Shown piece by piece: positions 1 through 59,535 of a stretch of DNA of 64,000 bases (position 1 is the first letter of the stretch; the number at the start of each line of letters is the position of its first letter). Location of the stretch: NCBI GenBank assembly GCA_016235665.1, contig JACRJI010000014.1:147544-211543 (forward strand). Direction: 5' to 3'. Position numbers and translations under genes: made by a program. This DNA is from a candidate division TA06 bacterium (GTDB taxonomy: Bacteria; Edwardsbacteria; AC1; EtOH8). Under the pieces are notes generated by a model. It searched no databases and was not told the origin of the DNA. It worked only from the letters and a program-made list of their open reading frames with translations.

Positions 1-243
1 GCTTTCCAGAACATTGTCTTTCTCATGGGGATTATCCTGGCCATGAACATTCCCCTGAATTGTCTCAGATTCAGTGCCGGGTTTTATACGTTTCTGTTCC
101 TGATAGCAGTGATCTGTATTACTTATCTGCCCCAGCAGATTCCGGCGTTGCTCGTTCCACGATATGGGACACAAACCAAGCTGAAATATATCTTGTATGT
201 AGCAATATTGGTCCTCTTTATTATACAACTTATCGTTGGATAG
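1..243 (+). CDS. hypothetical small membrane protein, possibly 5-prime partial (reading frame open to window edge)
   Basis: ORF 25..243 with hydrophobic segments; no in-frame stop between position 1 and the ATG, so it may continue upstream of the window. Confidence 0.25.
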   Translation, partial: AFQNIVFLMGIILAMNIPLNCLRFSAGFYTFLFLIAVICITYLPQQIPALLVPRYGTQTKLKYILYVAILVLFIIQLIVG

Positions 244-634
244 GAGCAGTATAATGAAATACATCAATGATTATTTTAAACCTATCAGCAAAGAAACGAT
301 CTTCAAAAAGCCAAAATCCGTCAGTGATCAAGGCTTTGCAAGCAAAAAAACCGTCATGAAGGAAACGAAGGACGGCATCGAACGGCACGTTGAGGAAAGC
401 ATCCTCCTTTCCGCTTGCGGTGAGGTAATCAAGGAAAGCGAGATCAGCGGACGTTGTGATGTTTGTGGCGGATACACTTGCCCAAAGCACATCTACCATT
501 GCCAGGCATGTCAAAAGACGTTATGCCTTCGGGATGTCCGGTTCTTAAAGGACAATGAAAACGAAAGCGCGTACTGCCCCGAACATTATACTATTGCTGT
601 ATATAACTATGACACCTGGACACGTCGCAAATAA
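236..634 (+). CDS. Cys-rich zinc-ribbon protein (CxxC...CxxC...CP), first gene of island operon
   Basis: C-terminal CDVCGG...CPKH...CQACQ...CPEH cysteine pairs; directly upstream of and coupled to the ATPase gene. Confidence 0.4.
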   Translation: MDRSSIMKYINDYFKPISKETIFKKPKSVSDQGFASKKTVMKETKDGIERHVEESILLSACGEVIKESEISGRCDVCGGYTCPKHIYHCQACQKTLCLRDVRFLKDNENESAYCPEHYTIAVYNYDTWTRRK

Positions 635-660
635 CGAAGCAATATAACTGGTTATTTATA

Positions 661-2358
661 ATGCTACTTTCTGAAAGAAAATCAACGTTCGATTCGGATC
701 CTTGCCTGCAGGCTGCTCTCCACATCATGGAACTGGCAAGGCAGACAGGTACAGAACGTGAGCTTTTCATCCTGCAGGCCCTAAAAGTGATCCGGGCATT
801 TCCGCAAAACCTCGGACTGATCCAGGGGTATGTCAGGAGCGTGGAGCGGAGGCTTTTGCCAAAGTTGATCAATGAAAAGTATCAAAGCCAGGTGCCGGAT
901 TCAAGGGTTTTTGGCGGGAATATCCACCTGGGAAATGTAGTTGAGAACAATGTTCCCGCCAGGATCACGACGGGACAGCTTAACCAGAACATCCTGATTT
1001 ATGGGAGGACAGGATCAGGCAAGTCGAATTTCAATATGCATGTTATCCCCCAGATTGCAGGGCTTGGGATAAAATGTGAAATATTTGATTTCAAACGGGA
1101 GTACCGGGACCTTTGGACATTACAGGATTGCCAGCCCATGATAGTACTCAATACCAGCAATGACAAATACAACCCGCTGGAACCAGTCGGGAATCCCAAG
1201 GGGTATAACCAGTTTTTCTGGGACATCTGCCAGCAGGATTTCAACATTCGCCCGGAAACTAAGCAAATGTTGATAATTTGTACCGACGAGTTGTATGCCC
1301 GTTTCGGGGTATACAACAATGGGAAATACTTTCCCACCTTATATGACCTCTATGATTACCTTAAAGAGAAGGCTGAAACGGCCAATCCCAAGATATTCAG
1401 GGGAATGGAAGTGATTCTGTCGATAATAAACCGGCTGGGCGCTATGGTTGATTGCAGTTCGGGATATGACCTCTCCGGTTTTAAAACGGTGTGCTATGAG
1501 GTGGATAACCTGAGTGAGGATTTAAGGTCCTGGATTATGAAACTGAGATTAAAAAAAAGCTACGAACAGGGTCTGAAATACAATCAACGGAATATATTGA
1601 GAAAAATTCTGGTTTTCGACGAGGCGAAGATGGTTTTTGGACAGAGCCGGATCGGGGAAGCGACCAACTATTTTAAGGATGCCATTACCCAGCAACGGGC
1701 ATTGGGTACCGGACTGCTTATTTCCGACCAGAACCCGTCGGAGTTGGCCGACTTCATCAGGAATAATGTCTATGGACAGGTCTGTTTTCATCTGGTCCAT
1801 CCTAAGGAAAGGCGGAACGCCGCACAATCTTTGGGTGGCACCGAGGACTTTGAATTGAAGATTGCGCGTTTGGCAATTCCCAACGCATATATTTCTCTGG
1901 GGCATTACCCGTACCCATTCCTGATGAGAATACCCAAAAGCAGGGTAACCTGGCATATCGGGGATGGAGAATTTGATCGTCTTATGCAGCCGGTAATATC
2001 CAGATTACAGTATATCCCCAGATACAAACCCGTTAAACCCGCTATTGTAATAACCCCAAAAGTCAACATACCGGAGAAACCAGCCAGCATTCCCAAAACA
2101 GACTCTACCGGAGATCTGTTTGAGCAATGGATAAATCTTTTAAAACATATTAAGGCGAATCCTGAAGACAATGTTTCGAAAATATACGATAAGCTGGGGT
2201 TGTCCAGAAGGAAGGGCAATTTGATCAAGGAACAGCTTTTGGAAAATTGTTTGATTGAAGAGGAGGTTGTCCATACCAAGGAGAGGAAACGGCCCCAAAA
2301 GCGACTAAAGCTCACTCTAAAGGGGGAGGAATATGTCAAAAGGCAAAGGCGGGCCTGA
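661..2358 (+). CDS. FtsK/HerA/VirB4-superfamily P-loop NTPase (DUF87-like)
   Basis: Walker A ILIYGRTGSGKS; Walker B hydrophobic run ILVFDEAKM; downstream LLISDQNPSEL sensor-like segment; 565 aa. Confidence 0.6.
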   Translation: MLLSERKSTFDSDPCLQAALHIMELARQTGTERELFILQALKVIRAFPQNLGLIQGYVRSVERRLLPKLINEKYQSQVPDSRVFGGNIHLGNVVENNVPARITTGQLNQNILIYGRTGSGKSNFNMHVIPQIAGLGIKCEIFDFKREYRDLWTLQDCQPMIVLNTSNDKYNPLEPVGNPKGYNQFFWDICQQDFNIRPETKQMLIICTDELYARFGVYNNGKYFPTLYDLYDYLKEKAETANPKIFRGMEVILSIINRLGAMVDCSSGYDLSGFKTVCYEVDNLSEDLRSWIMKLRLKKSYEQGLKYNQRNILRKILVFDEAKMVFGQSRIGEATNYFKDAITQQRALGTGLLISDQNPSELADFIRNNVYGQVCFHLVHPKERRNAAQSLGGTEDFELKIARLAIPNAYISLGHYPYPFLMRIPKSRVTWHIGDGEFDRLMQPVISRLQYIPRYKPVKPAIVITPKVNIPEKPASIPKTDSTGDLFEQWINLLKHIKANPEDNVSKIYDKLGLSRRKGNLIKEQLLENCLIEEEVVHTKERKRPQKRLKLTLKGEEYVKRQRRA

Positions 2359-2683
2359 ACACCAAAAGGCACAATGCCTTATAAGGGATTACTACCAGGC
2401 CCGGGGCATGGTGGCCGTTATAGAGGCTTTTCTTGGAAACAAGAATATAGATGTGTTGGTGCAGGATCCAGAGACTGGGCAGATCATAGCCATAGAATAC
2501 CAGACGACGATTAAACATGCTTTGGAGAATGTTCTGCTTGACCATGTTTTTTGTGACGAGGTGATTCTCGTTTCGGCCGATATCCGGGTGCTTGGGCAAA
2601 TGAAGCGGAAGATTGACGGGAACGGGGCAATTAACGGACAAAAAGTAAAATATAGGCTACTCAAGGAGTTTATTCCACAATAA
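2333..2683 (+). CDS. hypothetical 116-aa protein (possible degenerate PD-(D/E)xK-like fold)
   Basis: ORF with GGGGAGG RBS 6 nt upstream, overlaps ATPase stop by 26 nt; IDVLVQDPETGQIIAIEYQ resembles YraN-like nuclease core but is not diagnostic. Confidence 0.35.
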   Translation: MSKGKGGPEHQKAQCLIRDYYQARGMVAVIEAFLGNKNIDVLVQDPETGQIIAIEYQTTIKHALENVLLDHVFCDEVILVSADIRVLGQMKRKIDGNGAINGQKVKYRLLKEFIPQ

Positions 2684-2771
2684 TGGTAATCTGGTCAGTA
2701 GTAATAACCCGGAATAAAATATGGAATTTAACCAACGGACTAAAATCCCAAAACGAAAGGAGGTGAACAGT

Positions 2772-3512
2772 ATGCAAAGAAAAACAATATCCCTGATTGT
2801 GGCAGGCAGTGGGGTGATCAAAGACCTGGCGATTTCTCCGGAAACGACGGTCCATGACATCATCAATCAGAACGGACTATCTGGCTATGCTCTGTCCAAG
2901 GGCAACGAACAGAGTCTCAGTCAGGAGGATAACATCTTCAATTCGGTCATGGATGGCGACGAGGTCTATGCATCGCCGGAGGATGTTTCTGTAGGCAGAC
3001 AACCCCCTGCCTCCCCCTTCGGGGGGAAACCGTCCTTCCAGTTTGAAAAGATAACTGGCATCCGGCAAACGGTAACCCACTCAGGAGTGACGGAGACCCG
3101 CAAGGTGGAGGTGGTCCGGACTAGAACGTATGATAAGACCCTATTTCTCAAAAAGCGGTCAGGGCTGCCCTATTGGATGAAGGCCGGTTGGTTTCAGACA
3201 AATGATGGATACAATGGGTGGTACCGGACTAAATACGGAAGTTGGAAGGGTTATATCCATCGGGATTATCAGGATTCCTACTCGTATTTCATCATCGATC
3301 CTCCGAGTGAAGTAAAAAATGGATCCCATGGAGCTTGTTTTTCCCACCGGGGAAACGGTAAATATCAAGTGCATTTTAGTGTCAAGCCGACGGATATCGG
3401 GGATGGTATTCTAACGGTTGAGAGACTTATTAGCGAATCATTCGGTCAAAAGAACCACAAGGCACATAGAGGAGGCTTTATATCATGTTTACGAAAACTG
3501 GGGCTTTTGTGA
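2772..3512 (+). CDS. ubiquitin-like (beta-grasp) domain protein fused through an FGG motif to a ~160-aa C-terminal domain
   Basis: N-terminal KTISLIVAGSGVIKDLAISPETTVHDII...DGDEVYA matches the ThiS/MoaD/ubiquitin beta-grasp pattern; linker RQPPASPFGG then C-terminal domain; strong AAAGGAGG RBS before ATG 2772. Confidence 0.55.
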   Translation: MQRKTISLIVAGSGVIKDLAISPETTVHDIINQNGLSGYALSKGNEQSLSQEDNIFNSVMDGDEVYASPEDVSVGRQPPASPFGGKPSFQFEKITGIRQTVTHSGVTETRKVEVVRTRTYDKTLFLKKRSGLPYWMKAGWFQTNDGYNGWYRTKYGSWKGYIHRDYQDSYSYFIIDPPSEVKNGSHGACFSHRGNGKYQVHFSVKPTDIGDGILTVERLISESFGQKNHKAHRGGFISCLRKLGLL

Positions 3513-3541
3513 TGAGGTTTCAATGACAGCGGAGAAGGAAG

Positions 3542-4168
3542 ATGATTGAGCAGCAGATTGAGGCCCATATCACATTGTTAAAGGTAAAAGTAATTGCTCA
3601 CAGCGTTGTGGAGGTAAAAAACCTATGTGCTTCCATTTTAGACCTGCTGGAGCTTCACCGGATAGCGGCCAAGTATGGTTCGGTTGAGGACGAAAAAAGG
3701 ATTGTTTTTATAATTCCATCGCTTTTCCTACGGGATTGTTTAGATTACTTGAGGCAACAGGAGGAGGAATCGCTTCATTTCGTAACCGGAGTCCATATAG
3801 ATAATATTGTGATCCTTGACCGGCTTGTCAAACTGGAATTTGAAAAGCAGACTGTTGTCTTTGCCAAGGCTGATTCTACTTCGGTTAAAAATGCCTTGCT
3901 GGAACTGACGAGAAACGGTTATCGGCTTTTTGCATACTTTCATATCCATCCGGGCACCGGAGAACCAGCCACGCATCCTTCAAGTATCGATAAAAAGCTT
4001 GATGAGCTGTTGCAACGCGGAAAATATCAGGCAGTCGGTGCGATATTTAGTAGGGATGGTTACGCGCGGTTCTTCACCGACGGCAATTATGAAGTCCAAA
4101 TATACGGAAGGGGGGTGCAACAGATTGATGATAGAACTTTTAAGGTCGTTGAACCGGCCAAAACATAA
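3542..4168 (+). CDS. JAB/MPN (JAMM) metallo-isopeptidase
   Basis: JAMM-type motif FHIHPGTGEPATHPSSID (HxH...S..D); 208 aa; between Ubl and E1 genes. Confidence 0.7.
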   Translation: MIEQQIEAHITLLKVKVIAHSVVEVKNLCASILDLLELHRIAAKYGSVEDEKRIVFIIPSLFLRDCLDYLRQQEEESLHFVTGVHIDNIVILDRLVKLEFEKQTVVFAKADSTSVKNALLELTRNGYRLFAYFHIHPGTGEPATHPSSIDKKLDELLQRGKYQAVGAIFSRDGYARFFTDGNYEVQIYGRGVQQIDDRTFKVVEPAKT

Positions 4169-4187
4169 GACTTTTCATACCCCAGGC

Positions 4188-4934
4188 ATGGCCATGAGGT
4201 GTGAAGAAGACCGCAGGAATCTGACGGCCAGACAGGAAGTCGTTTTAGGTTTTGACCAGAATGTTATGAAAAGATTGTCCATATTGCAGATTGGAGCAGG
4301 TGGGCTTGGTGGAGAGATATGCCAGGGGTTGGTCCGAAAAGGCGTAGGGACCGTGAAGGTATTTGACGGGGATGTCGTCGAGCCATCAAACCTAACGCGA
4401 CAGAGGTTTTATCCAAAAGACCTTTACAGGAATAAGGCGTTGTCATTGGCTGGCAATCTTATGAAAGAGGCGATCATTAAAACTGAAATTATTGCTTATC
4501 CTTTCATGTTCCAACGGGCATTGGAGGAGGGGATGAATATGGATTGTGATATCGTGATTTGCGCCCCGGACAATGACGAAGTCCGGCGTTTTACGGCGAA
4601 GTATTTTCTCAATAAAGTGCCGGTTATATTTACGGGATTGGACCGGAAGGCAAATACCGGCTATGTTTTCATTCAGGAACCGGGCAAAGCTTGTTTCGAG
4701 TGTGCGATACCGTCTGCAAAAAGGAATAAAAGAGAACCGTGCCCGAATACTCCGGCAGTCATTGACTTGGTCAAGATCATTTCAGGTTTGGTCCTTTTTG
4801 CGGTTGATTCGACGGTAATGCATAGAAAACGAAACTGGAACTACAGACAAATATTCCTCTGCGGGTATATCCCCGAAATTATATGGACGGTTAAAAGAAG
4901 TAATAAATGTCAGATTTGCGGTACCAAATGGTAA
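4188..4934 (+). CDS. E1-like ubiquitin-activating / ThiF-MoeB family adenylyltransferase (minimal, ~249 aa)
   Basis: Rossmann ILQIGAGGLGGEICQGLVRKGVG, then FDGDVVEPSNLTRQ (E1/ThiF signature), CFEC...CQIC zinc pairs; start chosen 20 nt after JAB stop rather than the overlapping ATG 3930. Confidence 0.8.
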   Translation: MAMRCEEDRRNLTARQEVVLGFDQNVMKRLSILQIGAGGLGGEICQGLVRKGVGTVKVFDGDVVEPSNLTRQRFYPKDLYRNKALSLAGNLMKEAIIKTEIIAYPFMFQRALEEGMNMDCDIVICAPDNDEVRRFTAKYFLNKVPVIFTGLDRKANTGYVFIQEPGKACFECAIPSAKRNKREPCPNTPAVIDLVKIISGLVLFAVDSTVMHRKRNWNYRQIFLCGYIPEIIWTVKRSNKCQICGTKW

Positions 4935-5015
4935 CAGACCCCTATCGAATAAGGCGAAGTAAATTAAGGCGAGATCTAAAAACGAAGGGTTTATCGAAGC
5001 CGCAGGCTATAATAT

Positions 5016-5516
5016 ATGAAACCGCCATTAAGACAGGGAAGTGCGAATGACTTTCAGACACCAGCCCAAGCATTGCACCCGTTATACCAATATTTGAAAA
5101 AAGATTGGACAATATGGGAGTGTGCCCAGGGTAAGGGGAATATTGTCAGAGAATTACGGGCACGAGGGTGGAAAGTAATAGGCACAGATATATTAGATGG
5201 TCATGATTATTTATCTTATCTGCCGTCGAGATTCAATTGTATGATTACTAATCCTCCATATAGCATCAAGCAGCTGTTTTTAGAACGTGCATATTCTCTG
5301 CAAAAACCTTTTGCGTTTCTCTTGCCCTTGACCACATTTGAAACGAGAAAGCGACAGTATCTTTTTGAAAAATACGGGTTGGAGGTGATATTTTTCGATA
5401 AACGAATAAATTTTGAAACACCGAGCGGGAGAGGAACGGGAGCCTGGTTTGCGACGGCGTGGTTTACATGGGGTCTGAACATTGGCAAACAAATGACGTT
5501 TTGTAAATATGAATAA
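5016..5516 (+). CDS. small DNA methyltransferase, probably N6-adenine (phage Dam-like), NPPY motif
   Basis: ITNPPYS catalytic motif IV; 166 aa, size typical of phage orphan MTases. Confidence 0.6.
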   Translation: MKPPLRQGSANDFQTPAQALHPLYQYLKKDWTIWECAQGKGNIVRELRARGWKVIGTDILDGHDYLSYLPSRFNCMITNPPYSIKQLFLERAYSLQKPFAFLLPLTTFETRKRQYLFEKYGLEVIFFDKRINFETPSGRGTGAWFATAWFTWGLNIGKQMTFCKYE

Positions 5517-5733
5517 AGTGCGTACAATGGATCAACTAATTGACATAATAACCTTATCAAAACTCTTGAGCGTCAAGCCGATGACCATATATGGTTGGAT
5601 ACACGAGGGTGTAATTCCATATATCAAGCTTGGCCGGCTGGTGCGTTTCAGTGAAAAGGAAGTTCAAGCCTGGCTTAACAAGAAGAAACGAGAGGGACAA
5701 CCAGTAAAAGCAACGGATATAGATTTAACTTAA
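5509..5733 (+). CDS. AlpA/Xis-family helix-turn-helix excisionase-like DNA-binding protein
   Basis: LLSVKPMTIYGWIHEGVIPYIKLGRLVRFSEKEVQAWL matches excisionase/AlpA HTH pattern; immediately upstream of the integrase. Confidence 0.7.
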   Translation: MNKVRTMDQLIDIITLSKLLSVKPMTIYGWIHEGVIPYIKLGRLVRFSEKEVQAWLNKKKREGQPVKATDIDLT

Positions 5734-5802
5734 CTTGACATGGCAATAGGGTATAGGTTAACCCCAAAAGGTAATAATTCATTCATAAAGGAGGGAAGTG
5801 AA

Positions 5803-6861
5803 ATGCGTATATATAAAAGAAATGAGATTTGGTATTTGGACTACAATTATAAAGGCAAGCGATATCGTAAACGCGTCGGTAAATCCCAGAAAATGGCAGA
5901 ACTGGCACTTAAGAACATTGAGGTGAAAATTGTTAAAAAAGAGCATCTCGGCGTACAGGACGACAAAAAGATACTATTCGAGGATTTTACGACAAAATAT
6001 CTCGACTACGCCAAAGTAAACAAGTCCCCTAAATCATATTACCTCAACATAGGTAATATGAAAGCCATGCTGCCGTTTTTCAAAGGGAAATATCTATCCG
6101 AGATCACCCCTCAGGACATCGAGAGATATAAAGCAGAACGATCTTCGACGGTAAAACCAGCTACCCTTAACAGGGATCTTGCCTGCCTGCGGCATATGCT
6201 CAATAAAGCCATCGAGTGGGGATACCAACAGGTGAATCCGATGAAAGGGGTAAAACTCCTGAAGGAGCCTCCGGGGAGGTTGCGTTTCTTGTCCGAGGAG
6301 GAAATCAAAATACTACTGCATGAGTTGCCAGCAGGCTCAAAACTCATCGTACTGGTCGCGATGTACACCGGGATGAGAAGGTCTGAAATCCTCAATCTCA
6401 ATTGGAGCAATGTGGATTTGAAGAACAGGATCCTTGTCGTCGAGAAAACCAAGACCAATGAGCGGAGAATCATCCCTATCAACGATGGTTTGTATTCTCA
6501 GCTACATGAACTGTCCACAAGGAAAAAGAGCGAATTGGTATTTGCCGAATGTAGGATCAATTTACGGAGGAACTTCACAGATGCTTTGAAGAGGGCAAAT
6601 ATCAGAAATTTCAGATTTCACGACCTTCGCCACACCTTCGCGAGCTATCTTGTAATGAGCGGAGCCAGTATCAAAGTGGTCCAGCAGCTTCTCGGCCATA
6701 AGGATTTGAAAATGACGATGAGATATTCGCACCTTTCAAACGAACACCTCCAGGAAGCTGTTGGAAAGTTAAATTACACAAAACAGGATAAGATAGAACC
6801 GCAAACAGTAAGAGAAACCAGGAGCCGATATAAGTACAATCATATTATGTCCCTAAGGTAA
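5803..6861 (+). CDS. int: tyrosine site-specific integrase (phage integrase family)
   Basis: C-terminal HDLRHTFASYLV...LLGHKDLKMTMRYSHL catalytic box; N-terminal arm-type WYLDY..GKRYRKR; RBS AAGGAGGG before ATG 5803. Confidence 0.9.
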   Translation: MRIYKRNEIWYLDYNYKGKRYRKRVGKSQKMAELALKNIEVKIVKKEHLGVQDDKKILFEDFTTKYLDYAKVNKSPKSYYLNIGNMKAMLPFFKGKYLSEITPQDIERYKAERSSTVKPATLNRDLACLRHMLNKAIEWGYQQVNPMKGVKLLKEPPGRLRFLSEEEIKILLHELPAGSKLIVLVAMYTGMRRSEILNLNWSNVDLKNRILVVEKTKTNERRIIPINDGLYSQLHELSTRKKSELVFAECRINLRRNFTDALKRANIRNFRFHDLRHTFASYLVMSGASIKVVQQLLGHKDLKMTMRYSHLSNEHLQEAVGKLNYTKQDKIEPQTVRETRSRYKYNHIMSLR

Positions 6862-7790: not shown

Positions 7791-8462
7791 GTGATTTATA
7801 TGAGAAAAAGCATAAAACATAAGTATTCATCTCTACTTATCATTGAATGCGATTCAAATAAACTTCAGAGACAAAACATTGATATAGCAAGTAAGATTAA
7901 CGACCTTTTTCAAAAATTACCATTTTGTAAGCACAAATACATTCGTACGTTTGAGAAATCAGATTTATGCTTAAAAATAAATGAAATCTCTAAAGAACAT
8001 TACGATATTATTGTTTTAACAGGCCATACTTTTACTGATGGAGGGGGTAGGCCTGTCCGTTTCGATTTTGCAAGTGACTATAAACCAGAATTATCAGTCT
8101 TACCTTCTTTTTTAAATACATTTAAACCTAAATGTTTGATTATGGCTTCGTGTAAGGGGTCTCATTTTATTACCACGGATGTGATGTTTAATGGGATGCC
8201 AACACTAAAAGAAATATATGGCTCTCCGGTTTTGACAAATTCAAAACAACTTCAAATATTATTACTATTGATACCATATATTATATTCAGCGATAAATAT
8301 GATGACGGCATTTTATTTTTAAGCAATATTGTTAATTTTGTACAATCTGGAGGATATATTGTTAGGCATACACGTGCGGAATTTATAAATAAAAGACCGA
8401 TTAAATATATTCAACAAGAAATGTATGATTCTCTAAAAAGTATTTTAAGTAATAGTCATTAA
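7791..8462 (+). CDS. caspase-like (peptidase C14/CHAT-type) protein
   Basis: IIVLTGHTFTDGGG (His-Gly) and KPKCLIMASCKGS (compare caspase KPKLFFIQACRG) about 42 aa apart, matching caspase His/Cys dyad spacing. Confidence 0.5.
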   Translation: MIYMRKSIKHKYSSLLIIECDSNKLQRQNIDIASKINDLFQKLPFCKHKYIRTFEKSDLCLKINEISKEHYDIIVLTGHTFTDGGGRPVRFDFASDYKPELSVLPSFLNTFKPKCLIMASCKGSHFITTDVMFNGMPTLKEIYGSPVLTNSKQLQILLLLIPYIIFSDKYDDGILFLSNIVNFVQSGGYIVRHTRAEFINKRPIKYIQQEMYDSLKSILSNSH

Positions 8463-8478
8463 TAAAGGCACAACACAT

Positions 8479-9267
8479 ATGGCACATTATAGATATAATT
8501 CTCTAGAAGATTATTTAATATCTCAGCCCCTAACGGTTGATGGTGTTTTGGATGATGGATGGGGTGCCTCGTTTCCAGTTAAAGGGCGTGAAGTAGAGGC
8601 AACAATATTATTTTCTGACATTTCGTCATTCACTCGACGCACTCTTGATTTAACCCCTACGGAAACATTAATATTTGTCAACAATTTTTTCTCATGGATT
8701 ACAGCTGAAGCTTTAAGGGATAAACCAGCGATTATTGACAAGTATGTCGGTGATGAGATGATGATTGTATTTTCAAATGAGTTTGGGTCTAAAGATCATT
8801 TTGTCGATGCTATTCAAACCGCAAGGTGGATGGGAGAATATGACATACTTGATTTCCGTCCTCACATAGGAATAGCAAGTGGCCCCGTTATTATTGGCTA
8901 TGTTGGTACACCTGTTAAATATAATTGTTCTGTATTTGGTCATACCGTCGCATTAGCGAAGAGGTGTGCAGGGGTGAAAATGAGCGATACTAGTCCATAT
9001 ATGGTTTTCCCGACACGATCATGGCAGGGTCGTTCGTTTGAAGAAATAATTCCACTTGTGAAAATGAAGAAATCGGAAAGTGAATTTGTTGAATTACCAC
9101 AAAGCTGGAAATTAGCCCCAAGTCGTAAAGTCAGCTTAAACAATATTGGTGATGTTGACGTAATGGGCATTATAAATATGTTATTAACAGAACCATCACA
9201 GTCCGCAGTGGAAAGAGCAAAAGAATCGTTAACTATTCTTAAAGCCAATGGCAGTTGCAGACAATAA
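8479..9267 (+). CDS. stand-alone class III nucleotidyl cyclase (adenylyl/guanylyl-cyclase catalytic domain)
   Basis: ATILFSDISSFT (metal Asp), KYVGDEMMIVF (second Asp), RPHIGIASGPVIIGYVG, YNCSVFGHTVALAKR (Asn/Arg transition-state residues); only ~45-aa N-terminal extension. Confidence 0.7.
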   Translation: MAHYRYNSLEDYLISQPLTVDGVLDDGWGASFPVKGREVEATILFSDISSFTRRTLDLTPTETLIFVNNFFSWITAEALRDKPAIIDKYVGDEMMIVFSNEFGSKDHFVDAIQTARWMGEYDILDFRPHIGIASGPVIIGYVGTPVKYNCSVFGHTVALAKRCAGVKMSDTSPYMVFPTRSWQGRSFEEIIPLVKMKKSESEFVELPQSWKLAPSRKVSLNNIGDVDVMGIINMLLTEPSQSAVERAKESLTILKANGSCRQ

Positions 9268-9528: not shown

Positions 9529-9745
9529 AAGCGATCAAATAAAAGGGGGGCGTCCTTCGGAAACAAAGCAAGAGGGACTACCTCAGTATGACGAAGCAAA
9601 CAAATAAAAGGGGGGCGACCCCGCATCAGGCATAATACAAGCAAACAATTCCTGCGGGGCAGGGAAGGCATCAAATAAAAGGGGGCGACACTTCGACAAG
9701 TTGGGCAAGGGGCGTTTCTCAGTGCAAGGAAGCAATCAAATATTA
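9529..9745 (+). repeat. three degenerate tandem copies (~67-nt period) of the ssrA 5-prime end motif CAAATAAAAGGGGGGCGAC in the ssrA leader
   Basis: copies at ~9538, ~9602 and ~9687 share ATCAAATAAAAGGGGG(G)CG(AC) with the authentic tmRNA start at 9746; the third copy also shares ACTTCGACAAG with GTTTCGACGG. Confidence 0.6.
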
Positions 9746-10102
9746 GGGGGCGACAGGTTTCGACGGTAAAGAAAGGGTTTAAGTGGCATGCCGAGAAAGT
9801 CAGAGGGCTCGTTAAAATACTGGCAACGTCATAATTGACACTTACAACTACGCTCTGGCAGCTTAATTTTAGCTGCCATGCCGCTGCAGGTCCCCGCCTA
9901 TCGGATCTGCAAACGGCATCGCAAAGATGGGCTGGTCCGAGACGCCCGGCCCGGGCATTTCGGATGAGATCTTAGGGCTGCTCTCTTAAGGGATCGTGTT
10001 TGTGCGAGACTTTTAGGGAAAAGACCAAAACACAAAACAAGCATGTAGAGGCTTAGGTTCTTACCTTATCGGACGTGGGTTCAATTCCCACCGCCTCCAC
10101 CA
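9746..10102 (+). ncRNA. ssrA: tmRNA (SsrA), one-piece
   Basis: 5-prime GGGGGCGACAGGTTTCGACGG; 3-prime GGACGTGGGTTCAATTCCCACCGCCTCCACCA; acceptor GGGGGCG/CGCCUCC pairs; tag ORF ending ...AAC TAC GCT CTG GCA GCT TAA (NYALAA*). Confidence 0.9.
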
Positions 10103-33981: not shown

Positions 33982-34173
33982 ATGATCAAGAAACTTTACC
34001 GTTCCCGGGACAATAGAATGGCCGGAGGGGTCTGCGCCGGACTGGCCAAGTACTTTGAACTGGACCCCACATTGGTCCGGCTGGGAATGGCGGTCCTGAT
34101 GGTGCTGGGCGGAGGGATACTGATCTACATCATCGCCTGGCTGATAGTGCCAGAGGAACCAACGGTACAATGA
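33982..34173 (+). CDS. PspC-domain protein
   Basis: LYRSRDNRMAGGVCAGLAKYFELDPTLVRL matches PspC domain. Confidence 0.7.
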   Translation: MIKKLYRSRDNRMAGGVCAGLAKYFELDPTLVRLGMAVLMVLGGGILIYIIAWLIVPEEPTVQ

Positions 34174-34929
34174 ACTATTAGCCCTACAACGCTCTGCCTA
34201 TGCCAAGGCTTCCTCCTACGCAACTGCTGCGGCGGACATGTTGGCAGACATGCATAGCTTCGCCGGACAAGCAATTGACAATTAGCAGGAACCCCGGAGC
34301 CTGAGATATCAGGTCCGGGGTTTTGTGTTTTTAAATCCAAATGATTATCCCATTCGCTCAGGAATAATTTATGGGATCAATTATTGGACACGGGCTTCGA
34401 TAAGGTTTCGATAAACTCAACCCGGCGCCTCAGCCGAACGATTTACACGGATTTATTGAATATATCTGCGAAAATCGGTAATAATCAGCGTGTATCTGCG
34501 TTCCGGTTGGTTTTTGGTTAGGCTTCCTGAAGGAATGGGATAGTCATTTAACCCGAATAACACATAGGTCCCCCAAAACATAATTCCTAAAATAACTTGA
34601 CATTTATCCTGGTTTGGTAGTATCATACTTTTCAATAAATGTAAAAACAGATTTGTTCACTCGTCATATACACTCTGTATATAAAAATGTTTAACCAAAC
34701 ATTAAACATACAATGTTCTGGCATGCATTTTGCCAGACCAGACCAAAGATCTGAGTCGTTACCGACAGAAAACAATGACCTAAAGTATAAGGTCCCGTCT
34801 TGCTTCGCATCAGGAAGCAGGGCGGGGCTTTTTGTTTAACATTTCATTTTTTACACCTTAGAAAACGAGAAAATATTGATTACTGACATCCTGCGGGGCG
34901 CACACTCCGTTCTGCGCCCCGCAGAGAAG

Positions 34930-35060
34930 ATCATCAATGCCACAGAGAACAACCCGCATGTTACAGAGGCTTTTGTCAATGCCGCATGGACCTTTCCGCA
35001 TACCACAGAAATGATCGTCAATGTCACAGAGAGGAAACCGCATAATGCAGAACAGGCACA
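34930..35060 (+). repeat. three tandem ~42-bp direct repeats (TCAATGYCACAGAGA..AAACCGCAT..) in the ~1-kb leader upstream of the RHS gene
   Basis: seen in sequence; antisense translation shows repeated LCxIDD..CG units. Confidence 0.5.
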
Positions 35061-35217
35061 TATGATGTATCGAAGACACAGTGCTTCTGAAACCGCTTGC
35101 TCTCATTAATCACACGGTCACCCATACCAAAAAGGCAGTTGTGCTGCAGATGGAATTGTTGAAAATATTAACATGGGGAACTAAATAACAAAATCATATA
35201 AAGGAGTAAATTACAAA

Positions 35218-38200
35218 ATGAACAATCATATCAATTTAAATAATAGACATATATATATTCTGATCTTAGTCGGTTTATTAAATTTGCTCTTGCCTTTAAC
35301 AGCTTTTGGCTGGGGGACATATAGTGTTACAGGTTGCGGGAATGTAATTCTATCACCTGGTGATGTTTACCAAGGTGGATCAACTGCTTATGCTAATTCA
35401 TATGAAAGCGATCTGCAAGATTGGTTGGGAGCTACATATGACGGCAGATATTCTTTTGTTGAGCAAACGCCCTATGTCCAGGATTATTTAGGTAATAAAT
35501 TACATTTCAGGAAAGGTGCTTCCGATTCAACAATGGTAGCCTCCAACAATGGCACAGCATACTGTGCTTTTACTGTTTCCCTTGATCCAGACTATTCTGG
35601 CGAAGACGTATCTGTATATCTGTATTTAATGCGGGCTACAACACAAATAGTTTCTGTTGCGAGGTTCTTTATAAAAGGGAAAAAACATCCAAAATGTGAC
35701 ATGGTAGGAAATCCAGTATCTGCCTATTATGGTAACAAACAAATAAATGAGATTGATATCAGCAAAAATGATTTAATGTTAAATCGGCAATATGGACGCA
35801 GAATAATATCTATAACCGATACCGGTAAACCTTGGAACAGACCTTTTGCTGCAACCAATTGGAACCATAATTGGAATAAATACATTTATAAGGCAACAAG
35901 TAATGACACAATAATTTTAATGAATGGTACAGAGGGTGCGAGCAAATTCATTCGGGTTGCCGGGAGCACGAATTATAAATCCGAACGGCAGGGTATGGGC
36001 TACTTAGACAGCATACCCGGTGGCGGGTGGAACTTGAATATATCTGATGGTAGTCGTTACCGGTTTAATATATATGGCAGTTTGGACAGCCTTTTATTAA
36101 AGAATGGTAATTATTATAGGCTTTGGCATACTGCAGATAGCACATATCTGGACAGTATAACAAACATGACGAATGATAGACTGAAATTCCGGTATAATAT
36201 TGCCAATAGATTGGCAAGAGTGTTTTATGATTCGACCCAGAATTTCATTGAGTATAGATATGACAGTACCATTACTGGTTGGTCAATTAGTCAAGTATTG
36301 ATGCATTATAGTCCAAGTGATTCTGTGAAAGTAATCAGCAGGTATTACTATGATGGGTATGTTCCAAATTATGTGGGAGCCGGTAACATATCTGTATATC
36401 AAAAAGGGTATAATTATTCAGATACTATTTATACTAACAATCGTAACAAAGGTGATCGTACAATCTGTTGGTATGATTCAACCTATAGGGGACGCGTTTC
36501 ATACCAGGAGGTAGTACATGGTGACAACGACACCGGCCATGTGGATGACGAAGTGACATACAGGGCATACTTCAAATATTATTTTGGTACTGGCACGACC
36601 GGTTACGACAGCACTAAGGTATACTATTGGGAAGACCAACCATTTACCGGAGCCCATGATCCGGCGGATACCTCTTTCAAACCCAAGGATAGCCTTTCAG
36701 CCTGGACCGATAACGAAAAGTATTTTATCCGAACGCTGATTTTCAACAAGGACGGCACCAAATACAAGGATATGACCTATAGTCCCATTACCGGGATTAC
36801 TGTTACTACAAAAGATACGCTTTATGACAAAGATTACAATCCCGGCTTGGTTATAGGCTCCAACAATGACAGCACTAAATATTATTATTCACACTACCAT
36901 AACCCCGGCGATACCACCACTCGCTACTGGCCCAGCCCCACCAAGATAAAATACCCCAACGGCGACTCCGTTCTCACCTACTTCTCGGCCAAGGGCGACA
37001 GCAACTACCGCCTGCCGGATTCCACCATTGACGAGGCGGGCAAAAGGACCTGCCACTATTACGATGCTTCCAACAATTACGTGGACACGGCCACGGTTTA
37101 CAAAAACAGGGTACTGGCCGACGGCGAGGGCAGCAGCCACGATGTCAGTCAAAGATACCACTATAATAGTAAGGGCAACCTGACCGAAACCCTGGATCTC
37201 CTGGGTCACAAGACCATAATGCATTACACCGATTCCGACACCGGGCAATACCTGATTGAACAAAGAATAGACATGGGGACTGCCGGGGAAGGGAACGAGG
37301 ACATCGTCACCCAATACGGCTACAATCTTACCCAGGGGACTATGGACACCATGACGTTCTACCGGGATTATCCCAACGACCCCAGCCGGACGTTCTATAC
37401 TTATGACGTCAACAAGCGGTTGGTTAAGACTGTATATCCTGATACTTCAGTTGATTCCATGACCTATGACCTGCGGGGCAATCTGCTGGAAAAGATAACC
37501 CAAAAGTCGTACACTCTGCTTTACAAGGCCATATACGAGTATGACCCGCACGATCATCTAACCAAGCTTAAGGAATACAAGGATCCTCAGAACTCGCCGA
37601 ACGATTACGATTCCACCGTGTATACTTACAACCTGCACGACAGGTTGATCTCCCAAACCAACGCCTTGGGGCAGACCACATATTATAACTACTGCATGGA
37701 CCGGTTAGTGAAAACCACCTACCCCGATGATACCTACGACAGCCTGGGTTATTGGGCCGGGGGCGATCTTAAGTTCAAATTAGACCGCAAAGGGCAGGTG
37801 ACGTATTACCAGTACGATGGCTATAACGGCGGTTGCGGGTGCATGTCTTCCAGCCGTTCCAGATTGGCTAAGAAGTATTATTATGATAGCTTGGACCAAT
37901 ACCAAAACGGTTTTGCCTATCCTTCGGATTCCGTGATCTACGATTACGACCAGGTTGGCAACCGCACAAAAATGGTTGACAAAAACGGGACTACGATGTA
38001 TTCTTATGACGATATGAACCGGCTGTGGAGCGACTCCTGCGGCTACCTGAACACCAAGAACCGGTACCAGTATGATATGGCTGGCAACCGGACGAAACTG
38101 AATGTTTACCAGGGCAATGATACCACCGTCTGCTACCTGGATCAAAACTACGACAATTACGATGCGGCCAATAGGGTGGGCCTGACAATTGCCTCGGGCG

Positions 38201-39603
38201 ACACTTTTGATCTTAGTTACTGGGACACCGGCACGCCCAAGGAGGTGCAATACCCCAACGGGGCCAAAGAGGTTTACGGGCTAAATGTTCGTGGACAGCT
38301 TGACTCCATAGCCACCACGTTAGGCGATACCTTGACCTGGTTCAAACACAGCTACGGGTACAACGGCCTGGGGGACAGGGAATGGCAATACATTTACCAA
38401 ACCCGGCCGGAGGTGTCCACATTATCCGATACCTTTAAATATGGCTACGACGGATTGCGGCGGCTGACTACTGCCATATACCCGCCCAGCACCAACAGCG
38501 GTGATACTGTAACCTACGTTTACGACGCTGTGGGAAATAGGCTGGAGAAACAGAGCATGGTCAATGGAACCACTACTTATACCATTGACAACTTGACCAA
38601 CCGTATGGCCCAGGCAAATAACATTTATTTTACTTATGACAGCAGCGGCAACTGGACCCGTAAGGCGCACGATACCGACGAAGGATTAGTGACGGACATC
38701 ATTTTCACGTATGATCATGAGAACCGGCTGGTAGACGCCCGTGGCCCCGGCTATAATCCATACTATATGACCACGTATTACAATGGCGATGGTGTTAGAT
38801 TAGCCAAGAGCACCAATGCTGACGCCGAAAAGCGGTATGCGTATGACGGCATGAACACGGTAGTGGAGCAGGATGCCAGCGGTTACTTAAGGTACAAGTA
38901 TGTTTATGTCAACGGAATGCTGTTGTCCCGCATTGACGGTAGTGATAATAAGTATTATTACCACAGAGACGGGTTGGGTTCAATAATTGGCGTAAGTAAT
39001 AGCACACCTGAAATTACCACTGCGCAATTGTTTGATGAGTTTGGCAATTGGCTGTACTTTGACAGTGATTGGGACTATTATGGCTATACGGGCCAGGAGT
39101 ACGACTGGACGCTGATGGATGCGGTGAACCTAAGGGCCAGGGAGTATTACCCGGAATATGGCAGGTTCATGCAGGAGGATCCGATAGGGGACCAAGGGGG
39201 ATTAAATTGGTATGGTTATACCGGGAACAATCCGGTAAATTACATTGATCCGAAGGGATTAGAAGGTTCATATGGTGGATGGATGTTAATTTGGCCACCT
39301 ACTTTAAGGTATGGCATTGGCGGTGGTATTATGTATTACTATTATCAGCAAATGATTAAAATGAATTGGAAAGGAGCTGATGCATATTTTCATTGTCTCG
39401 GATCTTGTGAAGCAGCTAAATGGGCAGGACCCTATACAAGCTTATACTGGGGTGTTTTCAGAGAACTAACCGATGAAATACGTGGAAAAGGTTGGTCTGG
39501 TGAAGATATTAAAAGTAATATACAAGGTATCAATTGTCCATTAAGCCAGACATGTAAGGAAAAATGTAAACCGCTGGTACCTAAAGGCATGCCACTAGAT
39601 TAA
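35218..39603 (+). CDS. RHS/YD-repeat polymorphic toxin, 1461 aa, with C-terminal toxin tip after DPxGL
   Basis: signal peptide; dozens of YD repeats (YDxxGN/R); RHS core end EDPIGDQGGLNWYGYTGNNPVNYIDPKGL followed by ~115-aa AT-rich Cys-containing tip. Confidence 0.9.
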   Translation: MNNHINLNNRHIYILILVGLLNLLLPLTAFGWGTYSVTGCGNVILSPGDVYQGGSTAYANSYESDLQDWLGATYDGRYSFVEQTPYVQDYLGNKLHFRKGASDSTMVASNNGTAYCAFTVSLDPDYSGEDVSVYLYLMRATTQIVSVARFFIKGKKHPKCDMVGNPVSAYYGNKQINEIDISKNDLMLNRQYGRRIISITDTGKPWNRPFAATNWNHNWNKYIYKATSNDTIILMNGTEGASKFIRVAGSTNYKSERQGMGYLDSIPGGGWNLNISDGSRYRFNIYGSLDSLLLKNGNYYRLWHTADSTYLDSITNMTNDRLKFRYNIANRLARVFYDSTQNFIEYRYDSTITGWSISQVLMHYSPSDSVKVISRYYYDGYVPNYVGAGNISVYQKGYNYSDTIYTNNRNKGDRTICWYDSTYRGRVSYQEVVHGDNDTGHVDDEVTYRAYFKYYFGTGTTGYDSTKVYYWEDQPFTGAHDPADTSFKPKDSLSAWTDNEKYFIRTLIFNKDGTKYKDMTYSPITGITVTTKDTLYDKDYNPGLVIGSNNDSTKYYYSHYHNPGDTTTRYWPSPTKIKYPNGDSVLTYFSAKGDSNYRLPDSTIDEAGKRTCHYYDASNNYVDTATVYKNRVLADGEGSSHDVSQRYHYNSKGNLTETLDLLGHKTIMHYTDSDTGQYLIEQRIDMGTAGEGNEDIVTQYGYNLTQGTMDTMTFYRDYPNDPSRTFYTYDVNKRLVKTVYPDTSVDSMTYDLRGNLLEKITQKSYTLLYKAIYEYDPHDHLTKLKEYKDPQNSPNDYDSTVYTYNLHDRLISQTNALGQTTYYNYCMDRLVKTTYPDDTYDSLGYWAGGDLKFKLDRKGQVTYYQYDGYNGGCGCMSSSRSRLAKKYYYDSLDQYQNGFAYPSDSVIYDYDQVGNRTKMVDKNGTTMYSYDDMNRLWSDSCGYLNTKNRYQYDMAGNRTKLNVYQGNDTTVCYLDQNYDNYDAANRVGLTIASGDTFDLSYWDTGTPKEVQYPNGAKEVYGLNVRGQLDSIATTLGDTLTWFKHSYGYNGLGDREWQYIYQTRPEVSTLSDTFKYGYDGLRRLTTAIYPPSTNSGDTVTYVYDAVGNRLEKQSMVNGTTTYTIDNLTNRMAQANNIYFTYDSSGNWTRKAHDTDEGLVTDIIFTYDHENRLVDARGPGYNPYYMTTYYNGDGVRLAKSTNADAEKRYAYDGMNTVVEQDASGYLRYKYVYVNGMLLSRIDGSDNKYYYHRDGLGSIIGVSNSTPEITTAQLFDEFGNWLYFDSDWDYYGYTGQEYDWTLMDAVNLRAREYYPEYGRFMQEDPIGDQGGLNWYGYTGNNPVNYIDPKGLEGSYGGWMLIWPPTLRYGIGGGIMYYYYQQMIKMNWKGADAYFHCLGSCEAAKWAGPYTSLYWGVFRELTDEIRGKGWSGEDIKSNIQGINCPLSQTCKEKCKPLVPKGMPLD

Positions 39604-39615
39604 GAAAGGTTTAAA

Positions 39616-40047
39616 ATGAAGATATTAAAAATTACATTTTTAACGGTTGTTTTAACGATCACCGCTTTCATCATCATTAGGCAACCTTGGCAAAAAAATG
39701 TAATGGTTTTATCTCAACCATTACTTCAAAACAATCAAACAATTGAATTATGGGAAAAACCATATCATAATATCTTTAGCATGGAGTATACAACATGGTT
39801 TGTATTTAATAATAACGGAAATAGGACTTGGCATTTGATTGATGACAAATATATTTCCTTTGGCACAGTTTCGTTATTCGTATCAAACAACAACGATACA
39901 ATTAGAGTTGAAACAACTGGAGCAGCTACACCTCTTCATTTAATTGCACAGTATAGTTTATCTGATAAAAATTTTGTTGCAAGAAGTGAAGAAACTGTTA
40001 GTAATAAAGCAGGATGGAAATTGCTTAGATCATTAAAAATAAGATAA
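39616..40047 (+). CDS. putative cognate immunity protein (TM/secreted, 143 aa)
   Basis: immediately downstream of toxin tip; AT-rich like the tip; followed by hairpin CTGCCCCGCC-TAAT-GGCGGGGCAG. Confidence 0.5.
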   Translation: MKILKITFLTVVLTITAFIIIRQPWQKNVMVLSQPLLQNNQTIELWEKPYHNIFSMEYTTWFVFNNNGNRTWHLIDDKYISFGTVSLFVSNNNDTIRVETTGAATPLHLIAQYSLSDKNFVARSEETVSNKAGWKLLRSLKIR

Positions 40048-40100
40048 ATAGATGTCTCAACTGCCCCGCCTAATGGCGGGGCAGTGATGGTACTGCTGAA

Positions 40101-41366: not shown

Positions 41367-41386
41367 TTAATTGAAAGGGAAAGAAA

Positions 41387-41890
41387 ATGCATAAAAATAT
41401 TCTAATAGCGATAGTGGCAATATTGTTATCTTGCACAAAATATGGTATATCAAGTAATGATAAAAATATTATTTACGGTTTAGTTATAAGTGATCAAAAA
41501 AGTATTCATGCACAAGAGATGCCTACGTTTAATATAAAAAAAATATATGTTAATATTCTCGGCTGTGACCCAAACAATGAATTGGTTGAATATTTAAAGC
41601 AAAATAATGCGATTGATATAGTGCCTGCATCGAAGAGCATTAATGTTTACCACGACCCAGTGAAGTTTGATTATTATAAAAACCCAATTTCAGTGAGGAG
41701 TAAAAGCAATAACGAAAATGGCATTATATTTGAGATAAAAAGTATTAAAAAGGAACCTAAAACAGGGATAATAACTGTTAACTTATTCTATTATGCGGGG
41801 CCTTTATTCGCGGGTAATTATGAGTATTTAATAGATAAAAACGATAAAGAATGGTATATTGTAAAAAGAAGCATTGGCGAAATATCATAA
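41387..41890 (+). CDS. putative immunity lipoprotein for orphan cassette 1
   Basis: signal/lipobox-like N-terminus; AT-rich; followed by perfect palindrome CCAGACCCGCCCTTAAGGGGCGGGTCTGG. Confidence 0.45.
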   Translation: MHKNILIAIVAILLSCTKYGISSNDKNIIYGLVISDQKSIHAQEMPTFNIKKIYVNILGCDPNNELVEYLKQNNAIDIVPASKSINVYHDPVKFDYYKNPISVRSKSNNENGIIFEIKSIKKEPKTGIITVNLFYYAGPLFAGNYEYLIDKNDKEWYIVKRSIGEIS

Positions 41891-41938
41891 TGATGTGAAC
41901 CAGACCCGCCCTTAAGGGGCGGGTCTGGTTCTTACAGC

Positions 41939-42739: not shown

Positions 42740-42747
42740 AAAGGAGA

Positions 42748-59511: not shown

Positions 59512-59535
59512 AATAAACGAAGATCAATAAAGGAG

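Follow-up and report, generated by a model that had tools for sequence, protein, structure and literature searches.

What does a set of ubiquitin-like conjugation genes do when it sits beside a HerA/FtsK-class ATPase on an integrase-bearing island? The question is raised by the first 4,934 nucleotides of a 64,000-nt stretch of DNA, called the window here, from a candidate division TA06 bacterium (GenBank assembly GCA_016235665.1, contig JACRJI010000014.1, positions 147,544 to 211,543 of the forward strand). The genes seem to form a seven-gene module found on small integrative islands, made of two welded halves: one for the conjugation of a ubiquitin-like protein (Ubl), and one that looks like a DNA-directed machine. 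The cassette is genuine and conserved, and belongs among the bacterial ubiquitination-like systems as an apparently undescribed variant. Its most likely role, suggested by context and analogy and held with slightly less than even confidence, is that of a conflict or defence system of the island or of its host. The seven genes are:

1-243, + strand: last 81 codons of a membrane protein; the full gene lies at 2910-3308 of locus L001, its start 155 nt beyond the left edge of the window
254-634, + strand: Zn protein, 126 aa, with a Cys/His cluster at nt 455-589
661-2358, + strand: HerA/FtsK-superfamily P-loop ATPase, 565 aa, recognised by Pfam DUF87 and its Walker motifs
2333-2683, + strand: small protein, 116 aa, probably of restriction-endonuclease (REase, PD-(D/E)xK-like) fold, judged from conserved residues and weak Pfam matches
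2772-3512, + strand: fusion of Ubl and a putative E2, 246 aa, read from predicted structures and invariant residues
3542-4168, + strand: JAB/JAMM metallopeptidase, 208 aa, with catalytic motifs and weak family matches
4128-4934, + strand: E1 of ThiF/MoeB/UBA5 type, 268 aa, single domain, recognised by Pfam ThiF

All six of the open reading frames (ORFs) that the original prediction had placed on the + strand are present at those positions (ORF check), but a seventh conserved gene, cut by the window edge, lies upstream of them. This gene is the first of the cassette, and its 132-aa product has some four hydrophobic segments (hydropathy analysis); the complete gene is seen in L001, an independent assembly whose sequence is identical to the window and which reaches 3065 bp further left. 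Two gene starts were also revised. The E1 had been read from a later Met, as a protein of 249 aa, and N-terminal homology puts its start at 4125/4128, for a length of 268-269 aa. The TTG at 236 had been taken as the start of the Zn gene, which is listed here as 254-634; the Cys-rich zinc nature of the protein held. From the membrane-protein end through a tyrosine integrase, the + strand carries an uninterrupted string of co-oriented genes (1-6861, ORF listing), in which the ATPase gene and the 116-aa gene overlap by 26 nt and the JAB and E1 genes by 41 nt, with a gap of 88 nt between the 116-aa gene and the Ubl-E2 gene.

Context look-ups and scans with hidden Markov models (HMMs) found the order membrane protein, Zn protein, ATPase with a winged-helix-like (wHTH) tail, small REase-like protein, Ubl and E2 (fused or split), JAB and E1 in 13 or more loci that are distinct and non-identical; the family HMMs match them at E-values from 1e-22 to 0, and their proteins are 35-66% identical to those of the window. 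Because the same gene order recurs in so many non-identical loci with such strong E-values, the cassette is far beyond chance. The original prediction had proposed a search for homologous operons in other genomes; they exist, and the linkage of a HerA-like ATPase with a Zn protein that it pointed out is conserved across them. The hosts, all uncultured, are TA06, Edwardsbacteria, Omnitrophota, Thermodesulfobacteriota, Planctomycetota, Ignavibacteria, "Deltaproteobacteria" and unclassified metagenome-assembled genomes.

At the centre of the Ubl half is the fusion protein. Its residues 1-75 (nt 2772-2996) were confidently predicted by AlphaFold as a single beta-grasp domain, which Foldseek matched to ubiquitin, NEDD8, SUMO and a bacterial Ubl in the PDB at a probability of 1.0. 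The domain ends in the invariant YA(S/T)PEDVSVG (YASPEDVSVG in the window protein), the last Gly of which is Gly75, and is followed by a linker, residues 76 to about 129, which is hypervariable, variable in length and modelled with a per-residue confidence score (pLDDT) below 50. An E2 had been thought missing from the operon; it appears to be the C-terminal half of this same protein. That half is modelled as an E2/UBC-fold domain of a family absent from Pfam (about nt 3159-3446), with a PP motif at nt 3297-3308 and SHGACF, which holds Cys189, at nt 3324-3341. Across 144 sequences Cys189 and His201 never vary, and His186 and the PP motif hardly do. Since the low-confidence linker split the full-length model, for which the Ubl half alone scored in Foldseek against the PDB, the C-terminal domain was modelled on its own from a 73-sequence alignment. 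The secondary structure of that model places Cys189 between the PP motif and a long helix, where the catalytic cysteines of E2 enzymes sit.

Searched by profile, 1.84 billion representatives yielded 955 relatives (clusters at 50% identity), among them C-terminal domains of about 130 aa that stand alone and likewise solitary 76-aa Ubls, which stop two residues past the Gly. In eight related loci Ubl and E2 are encoded separately, and there the Ubl ORFs stop 2-44 residues after the Gly.

Two enzymes follow, the JAB and the E1. The catalytic Glu of the JAB lies in EESLHF (nt 3764-3781) and its HxH...S..D motif in HIHPGTGEPATHPSSID (nt 3941-3991), and the catalytic E, HxH, S and D are kept in 15 of 15 loci; its database matches are weak (Prok-JAB, 15.9 bits against a cutoff of 25, E=0.013; BRCC36, E=0.04). 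By analogy with BubCD, which cuts BubAB, the prediction is that the JAB cleaves the Ubl-E2 precursor behind Gly75 and also acts in deconjugation. The E1 matches Pfam ThiF at 90.3 bits (E=1.4e-25), with one ThiF domain at residues 109-289 of the long ORF, and is a single-domain protein of 255-283 aa across the loci. Its ATP-binding motifs are GAGGLGGE at nt 4293-4316 and a second stretch at nt 4365-4403, its Mg-binding Asp is in CAPDND (nt 4560-4577), and its crossover-loop cysteine, Cys205, is in EPCPNTP (nt 4734-4754). The GxGxxG, SNLxRQ and CAPDND motifs and the crossover-loop Cys are kept in all 14 loci compared. A structural CxxC...CxxC zinc site (nt 4689-4706 and 4908-4922) is present in nine of the 14 and was lost as a unit in the other five.

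Could these genes instead make a sulfur carrier? Such a pathway would consist of a ThiS/MoaD carrier, the ThiF/MoeB enzyme that adenylates it and a JAB that matures it, in CysO/Mec+ or siderophore style. The PDB matches of the E1 are MoeB, UBA1/5/6 and the E1 domain of Cap2, with E. coli MoeB the best, its best NCBIfam names are ThiF and MoeB, and MoeB and ThiF are likewise single-domain proteins with a CxxC zinc site. The NCBIfam scores, though, are far under their cutoffs (ThiF, 69.5 vs 159 and 66.3 vs 275.25 bits; MoeB, 51.2 vs 266 and 47.5 vs 376.55 bits), and neither CysM, MoaE, ThiG, rhodanese nor any other cofactor-biosynthesis neighbour was found in the 13 loci, which always lie on mobile islands. 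The Ubl, moreover, shares a protein with a domain of predicted E2 fold in which a Cys is invariant, and its best structural matches, listed above, are not sulfur carriers. We regard this explanation as very improbable; the NCBIfam cutoffs and the gene neighbourhood effectively refute it, and the original prediction, which had favoured a Ubl-conjugation set over a ThiS/MoaD one, is upheld on this point.

The other half of the cassette begins with the membrane protein, for which there is no Pfam match and whose orthologues lie directly 5' of the Zn gene in every locus long enough to show it. The Zn protein follows the pattern C-x2-C-x9-11-C-x2-4-C-x4-C-x2-[HD]-x14-C-x2-[HC], in which C68, C71, C83, C86, C91 and C108 are invariant in eight orthologues and two further positions are Cys, His or Asp. 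Its first six ligands are spaced as in AN1 (zf-AN1, 15.8 bits vs a cutoff of 27.9, E=0.015). The protein is possibly a binuclear (AN1/RING-like) module which serves as an E3-like adaptor or a sensor.

The ATPase has a helical N-terminal region, a Walker A motif GRTGSGKS (nt 1003-1026) and a Walker B motif LVFDEAK (nt 1609-1629), and matches Pfam DUF87, the HerA central domain, at 27.8 bits against a cutoff of 23.2. Its best PDB matches are the HerA of Sir2-HerA (8yho, 2e-9) and Sulfolobus HerA (4d2i, 2.4e-8), and in PADLOC it matches mad8 (4.6e-15), HerA (3.4e-8) and DndH (1.2e-7). NCBIfam gives low scores for HerA_antiphage (29 vs a cutoff of 800) and HerA_Thermprot (39 vs 800), and weak matches to VirB4-like and CedD DNA translocases. 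A conserved C-terminal region, at about residues 490-560, has the sequence pattern of a winged helix and is a candidate DNA-binding domain. The family is tight, with 22 full-length orthologues, none of them named, and is essentially confined to the cassette.

In the small protein, H10, E31, K37, D40, Q44, E55, H62, N66 and D70 are invariant in 61 homologues. No PDB match was found, and the Pfam matches are weak (REase_MTES_1575 in three of the 61 members, best 0.002; CoiA_nuc, 0.065). It is probably a partner of the ATPase with a restriction-endonuclease fold. In three loci a paralogue lies beside the cassette in which ATPase, wHTH and REase domains form a single polypeptide, with a canonical 'PD...EIE..GK' motif, and the small-protein HMM matches the C-terminal domain of this paralogue at 1e-8. 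Because the two are fused as one polypeptide in the neighbouring paralogue, the ATPase and the small protein seem to work together. The paralogue, at 657-689 aa, itself forms a two-gene unit with a coiled-coil protein of 136-186 aa (L008 936-3477 on the - strand, L009, L018 2035-4603 and L015 527-2904), which may be an independent system of the HerA-nuclease type.

Do the two halves belong together? They might be independent neighbours: a stand-alone Bil/Bub-like Ubl set and a separate HerA-nuclease type set, brought together through a shared hotspot only. The 88-nt gap falls between the halves, while inside each half the genes overlap or abut; the ATPase-REase fusion paralogue exists without Ubl genes; and a soil subgroup of relatives, described below, has an integrase gene between the halves. 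Against this, gene order and orientation are identical in 13 loci despite protein identities of 35-66%, different recombinases and different flanks, the ATPase family was not found outside the cassette, and distant relatives with another ATPase family still keep an ATPase and a membrane protein beside the Ubl genes. Mere neighbourhood thus seems improbable. The halves are taken to be coupled because the order is identical in at least 13 loci, several adjacent genes overlap, the ATPase is essentially confined to the cassette and the ATPase, wHTH and REase domains occur as a fusion.

By analogy with BubCD/BubAB, Bil and Cap2, we are led to suspect the following series of steps. The Ubl would be synthesised in precursor form, joined to its own E2 or, in some relatives, carrying a short tail instead, and the JAB would cut it after the invariant Gly75 (VSVG|). 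The minimal, homodimer-type E1 would then adenylate Gly75 and take the Ubl onto its crossover-loop Cys205, from which the Ubl would move to Cys189 of the freed E2 and on to a target lysine, with the Cys/His Zn protein possibly helping as an E3-like adaptor. The JAB would also reverse the Ubl mark. The second half would be a membrane-associated HerA/FtsK-class ATPase with a DNA-binding tail, a REase-fold partner and an anchor of four transmembrane (TM) segments; the ATPase-nuclease pair may act on incoming, often unmethylated, DNA. Ubl conjugation might then either tag proteins of the invader, as in Bil, or switch the effector on, as Cap2 does in CBASS (cyclic-oligonucleotide-based antiphage signalling).

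The leaning towards defence has several sources. The nearest solved relative of the ATPase is from the antiphage system Sir2-HerA, and PADLOC matches it to mad8, HerA and DndH; the cassettes have neighbours of defence type; and Bil and type II CBASS have an antiphage role. Across the loci these neighbours are GmrSD with NYN, NACHT with Mrr, KAP with Schlafen/AlbA_2 and an SMC-like protein, and PIN/MazE. A DNA methyltransferase, which also adds to the leaning, is linked to the cassette in four of the 13 loci (as N6_N4_Mtase directly 5' of the membrane gene in L005, L017 and L021).

Several observations weigh against this role, or against parts of the proposed mechanism. PADLOC matched the cassette with generic ATPase and E1 models alone, the Ubl-E2, JAB, Zn, small and membrane proteins had no usable match in Pfam, NCBIfam or PADLOC, and no relatives were found in sequenced plasmids and phages (tblastn) or in a scan of IMG/VR. 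Pfam and PDB sequence and profile searches do not recognise the C-terminal domain of the Ubl-E2 protein, Foldseek returned nothing significant for its model, and the likeness of Cys189 to a canonical E2 active site is one of position in the modelled secondary structure. The Zn protein matched RING, B-box, FYVE and PHD models at E>0.1 only and had no PDB sequence match. The small protein is a weak nuclease candidate, and its 'ExK' position reads ExQ (E55-x-Q57). A recombinase lies within two small genes 3' of the E1 in 10 of the 13 loci, and relatives put Ubl-E2-JAB-E1 beside ATPases like type IV coupling proteins (T4CPs), Replic_Relax, DUF2958 and a ParB-methyltransferase, which fits a part in the element's own machinery equally well. 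The case for an anti-phage role is wholly one of context and analogy.

Two groups of wider relatives bear on this last point. In L026 (922-6400) the order is Ubl, E2 protein, JAB, E1, membrane protein, TraG/VirD4-like ATPase and Replic_Relax. Here the E2 protein carries a TM segment at its N-terminus as well as a tandem pair of E2-like domains, of which the first has no Cys. A large soil and peat subgroup of integrative elements gave 240 tblastn hits (loci L027-L106, from JGI soil and peat metagenomes; e.g., L056 2746-13251). Its gene order begins with a D12 methyltransferase, an unknown protein of about 391 aa, a DUF87 ATPase, Replic_Relax and a double zinc ribbon/TM protein, and continues with a tyrosine integrase, DUF2958, Ubl, E2, JAB, E1 and a ParB_N/MT-A70 fusion. 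This subgroup, too, keeps the ATP and Mg motifs of the E1, the cysteines of E1 and E2 and the JAB motif, and its ATPase is homologous to that of the window (hhalign probability 83%, E=9e-6, 344 columns). The window ATPase, its paralogue and the ATPases of both groups of distant relatives match PADLOC mad8 over nearly the full length of that model, at E from 1e-7 to 1e-19. The recurring theme is this E2 family with Ubl, JAB and E1, joined by a mad8-like ATPase, a Zn or membrane component, a DNA methyltransferase and a recombinase.

Is the cassette then part of the backbone of the element that carries it? The membrane protein, Zn protein, ATPase and small protein would in that case be the island's apparatus for TraB- or T4CP-like transfer of double-stranded DNA, or for replication or maintenance, and the Ubl cascade would be a regulator of the element or a counter-defence, comparable to the unexplained PRTRC (ParB-related, ThiF-related) cassettes of integrative and conjugative elements. 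This we rate as less likely than defence, but it is the main rival and has a good deal in its favour. The recombinases close to the E1 are of two types: HTH_17 and a tyrosine integrase follow the E1 in the window, L002, L011, L015, L016, L019/20 and L023, and a large serine recombinase does so in L004, L014 and L021; tRNA-Lys or tRNA-Glu is the immediate neighbour of the integrase in L002 and L011. The size of an island can fall to about 10 kb, with no other candidate for transfer or replication, as in L023. The relatives in L026 and the soil loci, with their TraG/VirD4-like or DUF87 ATPases, Replic_Relax, integrase, DUF2958 and ParB_N/MT-A70, point the same way, as do an ArdC-like gene among the neighbours in L015 and the weak VirB4-like and CedD matches of the ATPase.

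Other observations speak against a backbone function. In the window family there is no relaxase, type IV secretion system or replication initiator, and hhalign found no detectable homology between the soil Replic_Relax and the window small protein, or between the soil and window Zn proteins. L005, L008 and L017 have no nearby recombinase and sit among classic defence genes. The second ATPase-REase paralogue beside the cassette in three loci is easier to see as stacked defence than as duplicated transfer machinery, and the fusion of the ATPase with a nuclease-fold domain would be unusual for a conjugative pump. A bolder proposal, which we find doubtful, runs as follows: Ubl tagging would directly control the passage of DNA across or at the membrane, either the element's own transfer or the exclusion or destruction of incoming DNA, rather than being a stand-alone, Bil-like tagger of phage proteins, and the cassette and its soil relatives would make up a widespread, hitherto unrecognised class of small integrative elements, in which a conserved core joins the cysteine-based Ubl cascade, with its E2 family absent from Pfam, to a membrane-associated HerA/FtsK-class DNA pump. 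A conflict or defence system is still the role we lean towards.

The island that carries the cassette had been described as AT-rich and integrase-bearing, and both features were confirmed. GC is 0.35-0.46 within it, up to about 9.7 kb, and 0.55-0.60 in the flanking and later DNA. Its left boundary was not reached within either the window or L001; the left end lies beyond both. Three further genes follow the E1:

5016-5516, + strand: probable N6-adenine DNA methyltransferase, 166 aa, with an NPPY motif (ITNPPYS)
5509-5733, + strand: HTH_17 excisionase-like protein (Pfam HTH_17, 9.5e-12)
5740/5803-6861, + strand: tyrosine integrase (Pfam Phage_integrase, 4e-37)

The methyltransferase, which has no Pfam match, is an accessory gene outside the core. 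No att-type direct repeats were found in the first 12 kb of the window, and a scan for promoters and terminators gave signals no higher than shuffled expectation.

Elsewhere on the island, left of the window (L001 101-2760), the cassette is preceded, in DNA whose GC resembles that of the island, by a 670-aa TPR-like protein and a divergent ORF of 216 aa; the 670-aa protein has a sub-threshold C-terminal DNA-binding domain of Trans_reg_C type (Pfam, 24.4 bits vs a cutoff of 26.2). The most AT-rich stretch (GC 0.35) lies between the integrase and a transfer-messenger RNA (tmRNA) gene, and holds a 223-aa protein with no database match (7791-8462) followed by a class III nucleotidyl cyclase (8479-9267; Pfam Guanylate_cyc, 1.1e-9; weak PADLOC PycC, 1.2e-5). 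Together these two genes may form a pair of their own, for signalling or defence. The tmRNA gene (9746-10102; Rfam, 182.6 bits; tag peptide DTYNYALAA) marks the right edge of the low-GC region; the island is on its 5' side, as opposed to the usual 3' insertion site. Just 5' of it, at 9529-9691, a 27-nt unit, AAGCGATCAAATAAAAGGGGGGCGTCC, occurs in three direct copies with 74-100% identity and a spacing of 65-71 nt. Further along the window, patches of low GC (0.33-0.46) in the 0.55-0.60 background, at about 34000-37000, 39000-43000 and 58000-60000, may be other islands.

Two observations concern the islands of other loci. L019 6118-7895 is a decaying copy of the cassette, in which the ATPase is split in three ORFs and no integrase was called after HTH_17 within that contig. 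In two unrelated samples (L004 3260-6162 and L021 13102-15920), the serine recombinase after the cassette abuts a UPF0004/radical-SAM (MiaB-like) gene, which suggests a shared insertion target.

Why would such a cassette matter? Bacterial ubiquitination-like pathways (type II CBASS, Bil and Bub) are a young field in which each new family has brought new chemistry or immune logic. The cassette would add an E2-fold family which is outside Pfam and yet numbers about 955 clusters at 50% identity, and a minimal, thioester-type E1-E2 pair in which a Bub-style precursor keeps classical cysteines, so that the pair may stand midway between the designs of Bil and Bub. Its genetic weld of Ubl conjugation to a HerA/FtsK-class ATPase and a nuclease-fold partner is a testable tie between protein tagging and DNA-directed effectors, and it recurs on the integrative elements of soil bacteria and of phyla about which little is known. 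Should the defence role hold, this is a new multi-gene immune system; should the cassette belong to the element's backbone, it would be the earliest sign that horizontal gene transfer is governed by Ubl conjugation.

Among known systems, the closest in precursor design is Type I Bub (6E.1; BubAB-BubCD-BubE; Ye et al. 2024), in which the JAB of BubCD cleaves a Ubl-E2 fusion after a conserved Gly (PMC11601596). Like BubAB, the cassette has Ubl and E2 in one ORF, apart from the eight related loci with split genes. BubCD is one polypeptide, whereas the cassette JAB and E1 are in separate frames in the window and separate in all loci. The Bub E1 and E2 have no cysteines and use Tyr and Ser oxyesters (PMC11601596), while the cysteines of the cassette E1 (14 of 14 loci) and E2 (144 sequences) are conserved. 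The cassette has no DUF6527/BubE serine protease (PF20137 is unmatched on its proteins), its Ubl is a single beta-grasp domain, its proteins have no sequence-level similarity to Bub proteins, and it has four additional genes, which encode the membrane, Zn, ATPase and REase-like proteins.

Bil (BilABCD; operon types 6d and 6c; Chambers et al. 2023) has the order Ubl-E2-DUB-E1, with a JAB-type deubiquitinase (DUB), and is cysteine-based (PMC10557695). The cassette shares this order and, as predicted, the cysteine chemistry, and its Ubl, like that of Bil, would need an exposed C-terminal Gly. The E2 of type 6d has no classical HPN histidine and has a conserved His C-terminal to the Cys (Iyer et al. 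2006), and the same is true of the cassette E2. The E1 of Bil, by contrast, is a large IAD-AAD-CYS multidomain protein, against 268 aa and one domain here. The E2 families are unrelated in sequence, the cassette Ubl is fused to its E2 in most members (split in eight loci), and the ATPase module which is obligatorily linked in the cassette is absent from Bil. The cassette E2, JAB and Ubl had no sequence match among solved chains, including Bil 8tyx and 8tyz, and the likeness of the Ubl is at fold level only. Antiphage immunity has been shown for Bil and type II CBASS and predicted for Bub (PMC10557695, PMC11601596). Membership of CBASS itself was rejected: the PADLOC Cap2 matches are limited to the E1 half of the model (positions about 300-590), there is no E2-E1 fusion, and the cassette has no CD-NTase. 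The class III cyclase at 8479-9267 is outside the cassette, belongs to a different family from CD-NTase and is absent from the other loci.

Coupling of a Ubl module to a P-loop ATPase has a precedent in the FtsH ternary conflict systems, for which a conflict role with an AAA-class ATPase was predicted (Kaur, Burroughs, Iyer and Aravind 2020, PMC7159879). As there, the cassette has separate genes for JAB, E1 and a zinc-finger protein (there a RING-type E3), and one protein with both Ubl and E2. It differs in that vWA, MoxR, FtsH, EAD1 and caspase are missing, the ATPase is of the HerA/FtsK class rather than AAA+, and the Zn protein does not match RING models.

DUF4297-HerA is an antiphage pair of a HerA and an effector. 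The cassette ATPase is likewise paired, and in the paralogue fused, with a small protein of putative nuclease fold, and the HerA of Sir2-HerA (PMC11514289) is its closest solved relative. It falls far below the HerA_antiphage cutoff, though, has a different small protein as partner in place of Sir2, DUF4297 or NurA, carries an extra C-terminal domain that resembles DNA-binding ones, and has membrane, Zn and Ubl partners.

PRTRC systems also bring together a ThiF-type E1, a JAB and Ubl-like proteins on integrative or conjugative elements and plasmids, with their function unexplained, and the soil relatives of the cassette have a ParB_N-methyltransferase directly after the E1. PRTRC is not known to have an E2. 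The cassette E1 scored 45.3 bits against the 144.75 cutoff of TIGR03736 (PRTRC_ThiF), the PRTRC A-F models were unmatched, and the window family has no ParB.

MADS (the methylation-associated defence system; Maestri et al., bioRxiv 10.1101/2023.03.30.534895) resembles the cassette in its mad8, which the cassette ATPase matches, and in the DNA methyltransferase that is often linked. No other mad gene was detected in the cassette, and MADS has no Ubl, E1, E2 or JAB; the main text of the preprint does not describe mad8 (bioRxiv 10.1101/2023.03.30.534895).

No literature was found that links ThiF, JAB or a Ubl with DUF87/HerA, Replic_Relax or DUF2958, within a search that covered subscription papers in part, so that an earlier catalogue entry is possible. 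The original prediction had supposed an undescribed architecture, and to this extent that stands; the architecture is, however, less alien than it had seemed, given the order of its genes and the design of its fusion. The Ubl part of the cassette combines the gene order of Bil with the precursor design of Type I Bub.

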